Virus record (IMG/VR): IMGVR_UViG_2563366875_000004
Location: 1 to 42,427 of that record
Source: a virus
Lineage: Duplodnaviria; Heunggongvirae; Uroviricota; Caudoviricetes
Direction: 5' to 3' (one strand)
Length of the DNA stretch: 42,427 nt
Below the pieces are notes generated by a model. The model ran no database searches. It worked only from the letters and a program-made list of their open reading frames with translations, and was not told the DNA's origin. Positions 5,886-17,110 of this stretch are shown in pieces. Position 1 is the stretch's first letter; the number at the start of each line of letters is the position of its first letter. Both the position numbers and the translations under genes were made by a program.

Positions 5886-6344
5886 TTATTGATGTTTGTT
5901 ACGTTTGCGAGCTTCTAGTAGCTCGGTGAATAGGCGATTAAAATTCTCAACGCGGGCACGGAGTTCGCTGATTTGTGCTTGCTGCTCTGATTTTGGAAGT
6001 GCGCGATACAATCGCAACATCTCCAACTCATCTTCCGATAAGTCTAAGGCGCTGTTGAGTGCAACTGGTGGATCTGGTGTTTTATCCTCGTCACCAAACA
6101 GTATCCAAGTTGGTGAACATTGCAATACCTCAGCCAGGCGATGCAAATTTTGCCCGCGCGGGGCTGTATGGTCGCTTTCCCATAGTGAAATTGATGAGCC
6201 AGATACGCCAGCAGCTTTGCTTAAATCGTTTTGACTTAAACCAACCTGTTTGCGTCTTTCTCTAATTCGTTGACCTAAAGTTTTCTCGTTCATATTTAGA
6301 TATCTTAATAACCCTTGACTTGAGATTCCTTGAGTGATTACCAT
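5886..6344 (-). CDS. Prophage repressor, HTH XRE/CI-type, without a LexA-like peptidase domain (152 aa; alternative start at 6293)
   Basis: HTH motif QVGLSQNDLSKAAGVSGSSISLWE; divergent from cro-like gene; C-terminal part is helical and lacks a Ser/Lys autocleavage module. Confidence 0.8.
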   Translation of the reverse strand: MVITQGISSQGLLRYLNMNEKTLGQRIRERRKQVGLSQNDLSKAAGVSGSSISLWESDHTAPRGQNLHRLAEVLQCSPTWILFGDEDKTPDPPVALNSALDLSEDELEMLRLYRALPKSEQQAQISELRARVENFNRLFTELLEARKRNKHQ

Positions 6345-6356
6345 TGAGAAAACTCA
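6315..6356 (+). promoter_or_regulatory. pR-like promoter (-35 TTGACT) with operator TGAGAAAACTCA directly downstream
   Basis: Operator 6345-6356 abuts the repressor start codon and lies upstream of the cro RBS GGAGGGG. Confidence 0.5.
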
Positions 6357-6370
6357 ACTTTGGAGGGGTG

Positions 6371-6598
6371 ATGTTTAAATCAGACGTAATTAATTTTTAT
6401 GGGACGAAAGCCAAAGTAGCGAAAGCTGCTGGTGTTGATCCATCTGCTGTTTCTCAATGGGGAGAACTGGTTCCTGAAGGTCGCGCGATGCGCCTGCAAG
6501 AGGCATCTGGCGGGGAGCTTCAGTACGACCCCAAAGTTTATGACGAATATCGTAAGGCAAAGCGGGCGGGGCGGTTGAACAATGAAAATCACCCCTGA
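6371..6598 (+). CDS. cro: Cro-like / YdaS-like HTH regulator (75 aa)
   Basis: ATG at 6371 after GGAGGGG; small HTH protein divergent from repressor; the track ORF begins at an upstream TTG. Confidence 0.75.
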   Translation: MFKSDVINFYGTKAKVAKAAGVDPSAVSQWGELVPEGRAMRLQEASGGELQYDPKVYDEYRKAKRAGRLNNENHP

Positions 6599-7133
6599 AC
6601 AGGTTTGTGAGGCTCTGGATGCCTGGGTATGCCGACCAGGAATGACACAGGAGCAGGCGACGATATTAATCACGGAAGCATTCTGGGCTCTGAAAGAACG
6701 CCCGAACATTGATGTTCAACGCGTCACGTTTGATGATGGCGCGGTTGATCAACGGGCACTGGGCGTTAACCGGGTGAAGATATTCGAACGCTGGAAAGCT
6801 ATCGACACCAGGGATAAGCGTGAAAAATTCACGGCGCTGATTCCGGCAATTATGGAGGCTATCCGGATCAGTGATTTCAGGTTGTATCGTGAAATTACTG
6901 ACGGAAAAAGCATTACGTACATGATCGCCGGGTTAAACAAAGAATATGGCGATGTGGTGGAGTCCGGGCTGCTTTTTGCGGATCCAGCTGTTGTGGAACG
7001 TGAGACTGACGAGCTTATAGAAAAAGCTATTGCTTTCAAGCATGCGTATCGTCAGCAATACCAACATTACTTTGCAGATAAACAAATATCTGTCTGGGGT
7101 TCGTATGAGTATCGATGCACTACGATGGGCTAA
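6582..7133 (+). CDS. YdaT-like protein (CII functional analogue family), 183 aa
   Basis: Follows cro with overlap; segment IFERWKAIDTRDKREKFTALIPAIMEAI resembles the conserved YdaT core as I recall it. Confidence 0.6.
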   Translation: MKITPEQVCEALDAWVCRPGMTQEQATILITEAFWALKERPNIDVQRVTFDDGAVDQRALGVNRVKIFERWKAIDTRDKREKFTALIPAIMEAIRISDFRLYREITDGKSITYMIAGLNKEYGDVVESGLLFADPAVVERETDELIEKAIAFKHAYRQQYQHYFADKQISVWGSYEYRCTTMG

Positions 7134-8145
7134 AAAGGTGAAAACCGGCAGTTCATCCAGTAAGTCAGTATTGACCTGGCTTGCTGATATGTGCGGTGCC
7201 GATTTGTGTGCATACCCGTCTGTATCTGCACTGGCAGAAGTAACGGAACTGAACAAAAAGACTGTGCAGGACAGCTTACGACACCTGATGGAGATTGGGT
7301 TAATTGTTGATACCGGTGAGAGAAAAGGCCGAACAAAGCAAATCGTGGTGTACCGACTTATCGGTGTTGAAGAAAGTGTTGCCGAGCCTGAATACACCCA
7401 AAAACGGGAGTCTTTAAAGGTGGGTAAAATTGGTGCTGTTAATAAAAACAGTACCGAAAACGGTTATGTTTCAGCACTAAACAGACCCAAAAACGGAACT
7501 CTTTTCTGCATGGAAAATAACCAAAGACACCCAATTTTTCCATCAAAGACACCCAAAAACGGATCACGGAACCCAAAGGAACCCAAAGATCTAAACCCCA
7601 CACATAACACACGCGAGAGTGCTCCGACCAGTGAGCAGGAAGTTTTGTCGTTACAGGCAGCACCCCCTGTATTCCTGGATGGCCTGAGCGAACCCATCGG
7701 AAAATTTCCGATGACCGATAGCTGGTATCCGTCACGGGATTTTCGACGACGGGCTGCGTTGTGGGGGATGGCTTTGCCGGAGACAGAATTTACACCTGCT
7801 GAACTTGCCGCCTTCCGGGACTACTGGACAGCGGAGGGGAAAGTGTTTACGCAGATTCAGTGGGAGCAGAAATTCGCCCGTCACGTAAATCACGTCAGGG
7901 CGCAGGTTAAACCAGTCAGCAAGGGGGTAAACCATGCAGCAGCACCAGGTGGCACCGCATCACGGGCAGTTCAAGAAATTCGGGCAGCACGTGAGCAGTG
8001 GGAACGTGAAAACGGATTTATCAGCGACGGAAACGGCCTGGAAGCTGTGGGAGCTCATGGGGGAGGTTTATTCGAACCGCTGGACCCAGAAGAATGGGGC
8101 CGCACCTTCGAAGCTCTGGATTGCACAGATTGGCGCGATGACTGA
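7105..8145 (+). CDS. Replication initiator, lambda O-like: N-terminal HTH replication domain plus C-terminal DnaT-like domain
   Basis: N-terminus SIDALRWAKK...LTWLADMCGADLCAYPSVSALAEVTELNKKTV fits the HTH replication-protein pattern; low-complexity linker carries iterons; start chosen at internal ATG 7105. Confidence 0.7.
   Translation: MSIDALRWAKKVKTGSSSSKSVLTWLADMCGADLCAYPSVSALAEVTELNKKTVQDSLRHLMEIGLIVDTGERKGRTKQIVVYRLIGVEESVAEPEYTQKRESLKVGKIGAVNKNSTENGYVSALNRPKNGTLFCMENNQRHPIFPSKTPKNGSRNPKEPKDLNPTHNTRESAPTSEQEVLSLQAAPPVFLDGLSEPIGKFPMTDSWYPSRDFRRRAALWGMALPETEFTPAELAAFRDYWTAEGKVFTQIQWEQKFARHVNHVRAQVKPVSKGVNHAAAPGGTASRAVQEIRAAREQWERENGFISDGNGLEAVGAHGGGLFEPLDPEEWGRTFEALDCTDWRDD
7394..7590. 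repeat. Iteron-like direct repeats (putative replication origin) inside the initiator gene
   Basis: ACCCAAAAACGG at 7396-7407, 7485-7496 and 7551-7562; degenerate copy at 7452-7463; tandem ACCCAAAG at 7571-7588; CAAAGACACCCAA twice. Confidence 0.5.
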
Positions 8146-8599
8146 GCAGCAAATCCGACAGGTCTGCCGCCAGTGCATGGACCGCTGCCGGGCGGGTGAA
8201 ACATGGCCTCCGGACCTAGCTGAGTTTGTGGCACTGATTTCGGAAAGCGGAGCCAATCCATTCGGTCTGACGGTGGATGCTGTGATGGAGGAGTACCGTC
8301 GCTGGCGCAACGAGTCCTGGCGATACGACGGGAGCGATAAATACCCGTGGTCTCAGCCTGTGCTGTATCACATTTGCCTCGAGATGCGTTCAAAGGGGAT
8401 TGAGCGGCAGATGACCGAAGGGGAGTTAAAACGGCTTGCAGAACGGCAGCTGACGAAATGGGCAAAGCATGTTAGTAACGGCCTGAGCGTTCCGCCAGTC
8501 CGGCGACAACTGGCGGCCCCCAAACGTCCTGCGGGACCAACGCCAATTGAGTTGCTGAAACAGGAATATGAACGCCGGAAAGCGGCTGGGTTTGTCTGA
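7934..8599 (+). CDS. Replication protein P-like (helicase loader); start uncertain (7934 or 8138)
   Basis: C-terminal half aligns by eye with lambda P (YPW...W motif, TEGELKRLAERQL); ATG 7934 has a GGGGG RBS but overlaps the O-like gene by 212 nt in another frame. Confidence 0.6.
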   Translation: MQQHQVAPHHGQFKKFGQHVSSGNVKTDLSATETAWKLWELMGEVYSNRWTQKNGAAPSKLWIAQIGAMTEQQIRQVCRQCMDRCRAGETWPPDLAEFVALISESGANPFGLTVDAVMEEYRRWRNESWRYDGSDKYPWSQPVLYHICLEMRSKGIERQMTEGELKRLAERQLTKWAKHVSNGLSVPPVRRQLAAPKRPAGPTPIELLKQEYERRKAAGFV

Positions 8600-8631
8600 T
8601 TTGAGAAGTAATTTTTACCGGGAGGAAATTT

Positions 8632-9402
8632 ATGGAGACTGTTTTTGACGCACTGAAAGCGATGGGAAAAGCCACGTCGGTAGAGCTGGCTGCGCGACTT
8701 GATATCAGTCGTGAAGAAGTGCTGAACGAGCTGTGGGAACTGAAAAAGGCTGGCTTCGTTGATAAAAGCGTATACACCTGGCGTGTGGCTGGCGAAGGTG
8801 AATCCGGGGTAGCCGAAGAGCAGCCAGCACAATCTGAAGCACCGGATGTGCTAACCAGGGAGGTCGAACGAAAAGTTACCGCTGACATGATGATTGAGTT
8901 TATCGGTCAGGAGGGTGCTAAAACGAGTGAGGAACTGGCGGGTAAGTTCGGTGTCAGCACTCGCAAGGTTGCTTCCACGCTGGCGGTAGTAACCGCAACG
9001 GGGCGGCTGGCACGCGTAAACCAGAACGGTAAATTTCGCTACTGCATGCCGGGCGAGAATTTACCAGTAAAGCCGAAAGTCGCATCGGTAACGGAAAATG
9101 ATGGTAAAGCCTTTCCTCAGCCAGCCGGCGTTGCGTTACCAGTACAGGAAGCTGCAACACAGGAAGATATTAAAACAGAAACTGTGGCGGACATTGTGCA
9201 GTCGTTGCCATCGTTCACCGAAACGCGAGCGGATGACCTGATTTTACCATCGCTGCATATGGCAAACCGCGAACTGCGTCGGGCGAAAAATCATGTCCAG
9301 AAGTGGGAGCGTGTCTGCGCCGCGCTGCGGGAGTTGAACAAGCATCGGGATATTGTTCGACAGATTACTGATTTTTCCCGCCGTGTTGCATCGGAAAAGT
9401 GA
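8632..9402 (+). CDS. Hypothetical protein with two tandem winged-helix-like modules (DUF1627-like)
   Basis: GGAGG RBS; internal duplication ([28 protein letters not shown] versus [32 protein letters not shown]). Confidence 0.6.
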
Positions 9403-12049: not shown

Positions 12050-12199
12050 TTTTATACCTTTTGTGTTGTGTGAAGGAGCAGTATAGTCAGAAATGAGACA
12101 AGTGAAAGGGGATAGAAAGTAATAGTTTGTTTTTGTAGAATTGCTGCGGGTGCTTGAGGCTATCTGCCTCAGGCATGAACACCAAAAGGCAGATAGAGA

Positions 12200-12303
12200 A
12201 AAGCCCCAGTTAACATTACGCGTCCTGCAAGACGCTTAACATTAATCTGAGGCCATATCTATGCGACACATAGAGATTAGCCTCTTACGGACCGAAAGGT
12301 CAA
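12200..12303 (-). ncRNA. Sok-like antisense RNA with its promoter (approximate bounds)
   Basis: Minus-strand -35 TTGACC (12298-12303) and -10 TAATCT (12274-12279), 18-nt spacer, reading antisense across the mok start; 3' end not defined. Confidence 0.4.
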
Positions 12304-12320
12304 GGAGAAGCAGGCTATGA
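12261..12320 (+). CDS. mok-like upstream leader ORF (19 codons) coupled to hok
   Basis: ATG 12261; stop TGA overlaps the hok ATG (CTATGA). Confidence 0.3.
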   Translation: MRHIEISLLRTERSRRSRL

Positions 12321-15143: not shown

Positions 15144-15206
15144 TCCGACGCAACCGCAAAATCGGTTGTCGGGATTAGCACCCCGGATGTTTACGGAGCG
15201 ATATGA

Positions 15207-15226
15207 GACGCGCCCGCGTCTTTTTT
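15207..15226 (+). terminator. tR'-like intrinsic terminator
   Basis: GACGC-tetraloop-GCGTC followed by TTTTTT. Confidence 0.5.
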
Positions 15227-15390
15227 CATATCGTTTGCACAGTCACATTCGCGATTAATGGCGGGCTGTGTGGGGGAGCCGAAAGGCTCGCCGGTTTCCG
15301 TACCCGGTAGTGCTAACCCCGCACAGTTCGCCACCACGATGATTAGCACCTGACGGTGGCGATAATGTCCAAATGTACGGAGTTATCGTT

Positions 15391-16956: not shown

Positions 16957-17032
<76 letters not shown>

Positions 17033-17035
17033 TAT

Positions 17036-17110
<75 letters not shown>

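Follow-up and report, generated by a model that had tools for sequence, protein, structure and literature searches.

The 42,427-nt stretch of virus DNA analyzed here (IMG/VR record IMGVR_UViG_2563366875_000004, positions 1 to 42,427; hereafter the window) is a lambdoid Escherichia coli prophage of the PPompW type. Two adjacent plus-strand genes in it, an initiator (O-like) gene at 7105..8145 that encodes 346 aa and a gene for a lambda-P-like helicase loader at 7934..8599, have the makeup of a lambda-style replication module. Our main finding is that these two genes overlap extensively in different reading frames. The P-like gene probably starts at an ATG at 7934, behind a strong ribosome-binding site that lies inside the initiator gene; with that start the last 212 nt of the initiator gene would be read in two frames. 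The comparisons described below indicate that this is real dual coding, with both frames open beyond chance and conserved beyond the shadow that the other frame would cast. In addition, an array of short repeats within the initiator's own gene is probably the phage origin.

Start of the helicase-loader gene inside the initiator gene

The product of the downstream gene is recognizable as a homolog of lambda P. In its long form (221 aa) it matches the Pfam family Phage_lambda_P (PF06992; E 8.9e-17, 61.8 bits, cutoff 26), the match beginning at residue 56, and a profile search of the PDB retrieved lambda P (8v9t, E 3.9e-6). Foldseek searches with the AlphaFold2 (AF2) model of the long form returned the lambda P chains of the DnaB complex 9oa1 as best matches (E ~1e-5, 196-224 aligned columns). 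The length of this alignment suggests that the N-terminal regions of the two proteins may be colinear; an alignment made by eye, of P residues 36-85 with lambda P residues 40-93, was dropped because neither BLASTP nor profile searches supported it. In the model, residues 1-26 are disordered and a confident helix spans residues 29-46, with Met-42 inside it. Residues W50, K53, N54, G55, P58, and W62 are invariant across 23 members of the P family, and an A-W-x-[LF]-W motif is conserved upstream of Met-42.

The P frame, which is the initiator frame +1, is open from 7931, and its first ATG lies at 7934. From there to the initiator stop codon (TGA at 8143-8145) the plus-strand segment 7934..8145 would encode initiator residues 277-346 in frame 0 and P residues 1-70 in frame +1. 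The Shine-Dalgarno (SD) sequence of the P-like gene, AAGGGGGT (7921..7928, plus strand), is contained in the part of the initiator gene that encodes the second disordered segment of the initiator. Its energy of -11.8 kcal/mol places the ATG at 7934 among the top 0.35% of the 865 plus-strand ATGs, compared with -6.5 kcal/mol at the candidate start at 8057 and -3.1 kcal/mol at that at 8138. An earlier note on this DNA had pointed to a P-like open reading frame (ORF) from 7934 with the best ribosome-binding site, overlapping the last 212 nt of the O-like gene in another frame, and our analysis bears this out. The note had left the choice between true dual coding and a misassigned start; our data favor dual coding with P from 7934 and locate the misassignment in the public annotation instead.

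The initiator start at 7105 is also the one used in RefSeq relatives. P carries several annotated starts. RefSeq E. coli entries begin it at 8138, giving 153 aa, and one GenBank set begins it later still. In Salmonella, Citrobacter, Klebsiella, Brenneria, and Pectobacterium, the Prokaryotic Genome Annotation Pipeline (PGAP) starts at Met-42 (180-181 aa), while other pipelines give either 180-181 aa (Met-42) or 221-223 aa, and all three choices are found among three orthologous loci.

A start at the plus-strand ATG 8138..8140 would leave only the 8-nt overlap ATGACTGA and make the open frame upstream a by-product of initiator coding. PGAP annotates this start in many E. coli genomes, and an ATG 5 nt before the initiator stop is a typical arrangement for translational coupling. 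However, the six invariant P residues are all encoded upstream of 8138 and the Pfam match begins at residue 56, and for these reasons the 8138 start must be considered wrong. The earlier note had named translation of P only from 8138 as the outcome that would speak against its reading; such translation conflicts with the conservation of the family. In addition, the methionine at 8138 is M or L across the family, the SD energy there is at background level, and P is the more conserved of the two frames in 8057-8145. We regard this start as extremely improbable, and an overlap of at least 89 nt between the two genes is almost certainly real.

The signals for initiation at 7934 recur in relatives. 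A GGAGG-like element stands 5-9 nt before the upstream ATG in 24 diverged loci, and wherever an intact O-like gene precedes P this ATG lies 111-150 nt upstream of the W50 codon. The SD energies at the upstream ATG are mostly -7 to -12.6 kcal/mol, compared with mostly -4 to -6.5 kcal/mol at Met-42. Between its DnaT domain and its C-terminal helix the initiator conserves only GG and [HN][AV], which correspond in the DNA to the GGAGG and the ATG of P. Nine E. coli loci keep both the open P frame and the ATG, even across an indel of 3 nt, which leaves both frames intact. Folding of the RNA from 7895-7975 revealed no special structure at the P start (z = 0.05). A programmed frameshift that would fuse the initiator to P was considered and, with no search made for slippery sites, set aside: the P frame is +1, not -1, and P has its own conserved SD and ATG.

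Several observations weigh against the start at 7934. Met-42 (ATG at 8057..8059, plus strand) is nearly invariant and at least 90% conserved, with an SD that reaches -9.6 kcal/mol in some loci, while the SD at the upstream ATG is weak in Vibrio phages (-3.5 to -5.6 kcal/mol) and in a few enterobacterial loci. P residues 1-26, besides being predicted as disordered, are poorly conserved, and direct similarity to lambda P is seen by BLASTP and profile search only from about residue 82 onward. Together with the PGAP start in five genera, the data on Met-42, its SD, and the variable P N terminus would fit a P made only from Met-42, with an overlap of 89 nt and 7934-8056 open but untranslated. However, the upstream ATG with its stronger SD is conserved in nearly all loci, and two loci (L027 and L030; L numbers denote the loci compared) have CTG at the Met-42 codon. 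Moreover, the upstream P frame is open in 24/24 nonredundant loci, the conserved A-W-x-[LF]-W motif lies upstream of Met-42, the AF2 model places Met-42 within helix 29-46 rather than at its beginning, and the SD of the 8057 ATG in the window is separated from it by a spacer of just 3 nt. A start at Met-42 alone is thus improbable in our assessment. We also consider unlikely the use of both ATGs, which would yield long and short P isoforms in a ratio set by ribosome traffic on the initiator frame. Both ATGs are conserved, each with some SD complementarity, so that Met-42 is a possible secondary start, and the long form adds only a disordered tail and half of one helix. The short form, however, would begin inside a predicted helix, and the second ATG is missing in the two loci with CTG. 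Overall, initiation at 7934 with a 212-nt overlap remains the probable arrangement.

Selection on both frames and spread of the overlap

Openness of the two frames was assessed by synonymous-codon resampling over 24 loci that share less than 85% nucleotide identity. With the initiator protein kept constant, the probability that the P head remains open is ~0.5 per locus, and with the P protein kept constant, the probability that the initiator tail remains open is ~0.2 per locus; the joint probabilities, ~1e-7.7 and ~1e-16.4, respectively, assume independent lineages and so overstate the significance, which tempers the case for dual coding. The initiator tail is also more similar among loci than P would make it: its mean pairwise identity is 0.353, compared with 0.276 expected from the P constraint alone (z = 10), and it is free of stops in 21/21 loci versus 22% of simulated sequences. 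The same shadow frame in two control regions that encode P only gave z values of 0.7 and 3.2 and was stop-free in 2/21. In the P head (aa 1-28), openness, ATG, and SD are kept while the sequence is not conserved.

Polymorphism among 70 close relatives revealed how constraint is divided along the overlap. The density of single-nucleotide polymorphisms is 0.42 in the part of the gene that encodes the initiator only (7610-7933), 0.24 in the first part of the overlap (7934-8056), 0.20 in the overlap core (8057-8145), and 0.32 where only P is encoded (8146-8596). In the first part, the ratio of synonymous to nonsynonymous changes is 16:16 for the initiator frame and 8:24 for the P frame; in the core it is 6:13 for the initiator and 11:8 for P. 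These ratios show that, along the overlap, it is first the initiator frame and then the P frame that is under the stronger constraint. Thus, over 7934-8056 the initiator frame is the more constrained one and the product of the P frame is an N-terminal tail that is disordered and evolves fast, while over 8057-8145 the P frame, which encodes helix 29-46 and the invariant W..KNG motif, is the more constrained, with the acidic tail of the initiator still under selection of its own.

The arrangement is widespread. We surveyed 37 Enterobacterales loci, down to 42% P identity. Every locus with an intact O-like gene before P shows a +1 frame offset, and its O stop falls 29-101 nt beyond the point at which the W..KNG motif begins. 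Overlaps measure 149-224 nt in Enterobacterales and ~200-212 nt in Vibrio phages; phages D72 and D65 share the same geometry and +1 frame, with an initiator tail that ends ...EERGG...D..DW and a P head that contains LWE...KNG. The P-like genes of these Vibrio phages (L130 1501-2160 in D72 and L131 1393-2034 in D65) are truncated in the deposited annotations, to 1834-2160 and 1513-2034, respectively; both the open frame and the homology begin within the O-like gene, ~330 nt and ~120 nt before these annotated starts. Apparent decayed copies of the module were also encountered, in Leclercia (L041, in which a frameshift within the overlap breaks the P frame), Symbiopectobacterium (L045, with in-frame stops in P), and Erwinia (L034, in which the O-like frame is open for 46 codons only).

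From E. coli to Vibrio phages, a P with this head always overlaps an initiator with this tail. In contrast, lambda, mEp237, and phiV10 have a P with the lambda-type N terminus, a 4-nt overlap, and initiators that lack the tail, and this holds for phiV10 even though its initiator otherwise matches that of the window. Because the initiator tail and the P head occur always together and are absent from phages with a lambda-type P, they are co-inherited as one unit. It is established from lambda genetics that the C-terminal part of O determines the specificity for P. By analogy, the initiator tail and the P head are plausibly the contact surfaces of the two proteins. It is conceivable, though we hold it only tentatively and as somewhat doubtful, that the dual-coding segment serves as a conserved cassette for the interface between initiator and loader, encoding its two sides, an idea with which the co-occurrence is consistent. 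If so, the same nucleotides would specify both surfaces and the mosaic recombination of lambdoid phages could not separate cognate partners; in addition, the location of the P ribosome-binding site inside the initiator frame would couple the synthesis of P to the ribosomes that travel along the initiator frame.

The iteron array and the putative origin in the initiator gene

The initiator has an N-terminal winged helix, a disordered linker, a DnaT-like domain, and a C-terminal helix followed by an acidic tail, as seen in an AF2 model built on 19 orthologs. The predicted winged-helix domain (aa 1-89; 7105..7371, plus strand) has predicted local distance difference test (pLDDT) values of 75-89 and is modeled as a helical bundle with a β hairpin, consisting of helices 3-11, 17-29, 40-47, and 51-64 and strands 67-74 and 80-85. 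The ortholog alignment shows strong conservation of this domain. The match of this region to HTH_36 (PF13730) scores 20.9 bits, below the cutoff of 25; orthologous initiators carry a precomputed PF13730 match. This domain is the presumed reader of the iterons described below. The linker (aa 90-195; 7372..7689, plus strand) has pLDDT values of 27-37 and is rich in indels among orthologs. It is followed by the DnaT-like domain (aa 197-267; 7693..7905, plus strand), which AF2 predicts confidently at 196-268 and which is supported by the Pfam DnaT family (PF17948; aa 201-267, E 7.7e-17, 61.2 bits, cutoff 25) and by PDB DnaT chains (E 1e-16 to 1e-19; 6aep, E 1.5e-19). The remainder comprises a disordered segment (269-284), a helix (287-302), and a disordered tail (306-346). 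The Pfam scan of the initiator yielded only DnaT, HTH_36 (below threshold), RP-C, and HVO_A0114, with no lambda-O family, and the initiator is not homologous to lambda O.

The repeat array lies entirely within the region that encodes the linker (pLDDT ~30), in agreement with the earlier note, which had placed three copies of a repeat and shorter ACCCAAA repeats there. The 12-mer ACCCAAAAACGG occurs exactly at 7396-7407, 7485-7496, and 7551-7562. Its 11-mer core CCCAAAAACGG, at 7397, 7486, and 7552, has three exact matches in the 42.4 kb of the window where 0.03 are expected, and 0/100 shuffles reached three copies. A fourth copy, at 7446-7464, is degenerate and is recognized through a 19-nt family, AAACAGACCCAAAAACGGA. 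Numbered along the plus strand, iteron 1 (7396..7407) has its core at codon position 2 and reads T-Q-K-R; iteron 2 (7453..7463) is the degenerate copy, ACCGAAAACGG, which is the dominant form in the Kluyvera ortholog (L019); iteron 3 (7485..7496) has its core at codon position 1 and reads P-K-N-G; and iteron 4 (7551..7562) follows 66 nt after iteron 3, a spacing kept in 4/6 orthologs. Short related repeats continue on the same strand over 7522..7587, with CAAAGACACCCAA at 7522 and 7544, CAAAGGAACCCAA at 7574, and ACCCAAA at 7571 and 7581. Nine ACCCAAA matches are found in the window, five of which (5/9) fall within the 192 nt of 7396-7587.

The motif is conserved in related initiators. In six orthologs, from E. 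coli, Enterobacter, Kluyvera, Salmonella, Klebsiella, and a metagenome (~52-57% amino acid identity to that of the window), four to five same-strand copies of (A/C)CC(A/G)AAAACGG are found between nucleotides 292 and 477 of the gene, despite the indel-rich linker. The plaque-forming phage phiV10 has seven copies in its initiator gene, and its 3.7-kb locus contains eight matches compared with 1.25 expected, so that seven orthologs in all (~50-57% identity) share both motif and gene position. The first copy is always in a different codon phase (T-Q-K-R) from the rest (P-K-N-G or T-E-N-G). Because the copies use two codon phases, the conserved object is the DNA repeat and not a peptide.

Different repeats occupy the equivalent place in initiators whose C-terminal half is shared but whose N-terminal domains are of other types: they are GTCACG-type in four loci, GCGTTAC in five loci of five genera, GTTCAAC in two loci, and eight copies of GGGTAGTG in one locus. 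DNA similarity to E. coli prophages whose initiators have other N termini begins at a mosaic junction at 7585..7613 (to which no strand is assigned), where matches start at query positions 556-584 of a query that itself begins at 7030, right after the array. Since similarity between N-terminal types begins right after the array, the DNA-binding domain and the repeats travel as one module. The junction is marked by the peptide K(D/E)LNPTH, which is common to initiators with unrelated N-terminal domains; in the window it is encoded, as K-D-L-N-P-T-H, by the block 7586-7607, AAAGATCTAAACCCCACACATA, and no other stretch of linker DNA is as well conserved. In the MANAWLRLWHD, MASSWIKVEVITPD, and DUF1376 initiator types, the type-specific repeats form two clusters, at about nucleotides 140-200, within the coding region of the N-terminal domain, and at about nucleotides 340-470, in the linker (L004, L007, L026, and L039; L020, L031, L033, L035, and L036; and L028); the type in the window has one cluster.

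Taken together, these comparisons argue that the repeats are an initiator-binding origin array, which we consider likely, and the lambda-like origin that the earlier note had proposed gains support from the occurrence of the motif in seven orthologs, its two codon phases, and its covariation with the N-terminal domain. The array is probably a lambda-style origin inside the initiator gene. Two features fit this poorly. The GC profile reveals no separate AT-rich unwinding element flanking the array, the low GC content (down to 0.35-0.38 over 7400-7560) lying within the array itself, and the iteron spacing, which is close to multiples of 11 in the window, is not so in phiV10. In addition, 7200-7800 contains only one-mismatch matches to the DnaA box and integration host factor (IHF) consensus sequences and no perfect one. 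These absences of a flanking AT-rich element and a DnaA box would suit an alternative in which the repeats are not an origin and are instead a low-complexity PKNG peptide repeat in a flexible linker or autoregulatory binding sites of the initiator. The copies do translate to the recurring peptides P-K-N-G and T-E-N-G, most share one codon phase, and the phiV10 spacings are multiples of 3 and 6. However, the first copy is kept in a different codon phase, the repeat sequence follows the type of the N-terminal DNA-binding domain and not the linker or the C-terminal half, that domain and the repeats move jointly as a mosaic module, and the arrangement agrees with the annotated lambda origin inside gene O. 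We therefore assign this alternative a low probability.

In the mechanism favored by these comparisons, the winged-helix domain would bind the same-strand 11-12-bp iterons, (A/C)CC(A/G)AAAACGG, in an AT-rich, linker-encoding stretch of the initiator's own gene, which would be the probable phage origin. The C-terminal half of the initiator (DnaT-like domain, helix, and acidic tail) would, by homology, recruit the lambda-P-like protein, and the latter would load host DnaB. Transcription and translation of the initiator gene would pass through the array, as in lambda.

Two candidate features were rejected. The iteron spacings in the window (56, 33, and 66) and in Kluyvera (44, 33, and 66) are near multiples of 11 and suggested helical phasing, which was dropped as the Enterobacter and Salmonella spacings (26 and 30) and those of phiV10 (18 and 24) do not fit. 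A palindrome at 7695-7713, CATCGGAAA a TTTCCGATG, has perfectly matched 9-nt arms around a 1-nt spacer and recalls the palindrome beside the lambda ori. It was rejected as an origin element: its arms are 3-8 nt in relatives, and it is explained by the codons for I-G-K-F-P-M of the DnaT domain.

The module in its prophage and among known systems

Over 7030-8620 the window shares 97% identity with the PPompW prophages of Shiga-toxin-producing E. coli, and the family of this segment is matched in 1279/5426 complete E. coli genomes. A cI-like repressor gene (5886-6344, minus strand) and cro (6344-6598) precede a YdaT-family gene (6582-7133), the gene directly before the initiator, and a DUF1627 gene (8632-9402) lies downstream of the P-like gene. 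This early operon is tightly packed throughout: Cro and the YdaT-family gene overlap by 17 nt, and the initiator start overlaps the end of the latter by 29 nt (7105-7133). In the closest RefSeq relative, E. coli CFSAN018748 (L001 4880-6591), an IS2 element interrupts DUF977, two genes downstream of P. Rfam and consensus scans gave no match within 7000-8600; gathering-level Rfam matches elsewhere in the window (12148-12319, 15150-15226, 15254-15338, and 16957-17107) are to the sok antitoxin RNA of a hok/sok module, the small RNA isrK, the C4 antisense RNA, and two tRNA genes.

Comparison with lambda ori, O, and P reveals the same overall organization. As in lambda, which has four iterons in O, the initiator gene itself contains the origin repeats, between the segments for its N- and C-terminal domains; specificity resides in a single module made up of the N-terminal domain and the repeats; a homolog of P, the DnaB loader, is encoded downstream; and the module is located in the rightward early operon after cro. 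However, there are differences. The window initiator combines an HTH_36-like winged helix with a DnaT-like domain and is not an O homolog, and its repeats are 11-12-bp same-strand sequences with irregular spacing, in contrast to the four 18-bp sites of lambda with their 20-24-bp spacing. Lambda also has a separate AT-rich block, which the window lacks, and its O and P genes overlap by 4 nt rather than by 212 nt out of frame. The P N terminus in the window is of another type, with similarity detectable only in the more C-terminal part.

The epsilon15-like Escherichia phage phiV10 (genes p43 and p44) shares with the window the N-terminal type of the initiator, the DnaT domain, and seven CCCAAAAACGG-type repeats in the linker. 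Its P, in contrast, has a lambda-like N terminus and overlaps the initiator end by 4 nt, and its initiator lacks the helix as well as the acidic tail. The domain architecture is also that of the DopC/DopE pair of Cellvibrionales and Oceanospirillales, in which a protein with an HTH_36 N terminus and a C-terminal DnaT motif precedes a P-like protein of PF06992 (Brezellec et al. 2017, PMC5509034). The dopC and dopE genes are resident on the chromosome, and the authors report no iteron-like sequences in dopC (PMC5509034), whereas the pair in the window is found in a prophage and has iterons. A stand-alone 189-aa P homolog with no O-like gene upstream is present in Erwinia sp. MMLR14_017 (L043 2974-3543). 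It is flanked by a phosphotransferase system (PTS) transporter gene and a LysR-type regulator, a context that is not prophage-like, and its ORF begins 16 codons before the equivalent of Met-42. This protein may be a domesticated loader, as proposed for DopE.

Same-strand overprinted genes are known in phages, such as Rz/Rz1 of lambda and A/B and D/E of phiX174. In these pairs, as in the O/P overlap, more than 100 nt of a single strand encode two proteins in different frames. The overlap in the window differs from them in joining the C terminus of a replication protein to the N terminus of its presumed binding partner, and in that the stronger constraint shifts from one frame to the other midway.

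The origin-in-gene arrangement is already known and ordinary for a lambdoid phage. In the literature searched, the coverage of which is incomplete, we found no paper on this overlap or these iterons, and no description of such a conserved long dual-coding junction. When long same-strand overlaps are seen in bacteria and phages, the cause is usually an annotation error. The O/P overlap passes the tests in both frames and is old, being common to Vibrio phages. The consequences for annotation are direct: the helicase-loader gene of a very common enterobacterial prophage family is annotated with three different starts, and the 153-aa RefSeq E. coli P would lack ~68 residues that include the most conserved motif of the family. 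For the biology of these phages, the overlap would be a clean natural case of two proteins evolving in one sequence and offers a testable candidate for the contact between initiator and loader, while the repeats and their type-specific counterparts provide sequence-level predictions of the origins of several initiator families.

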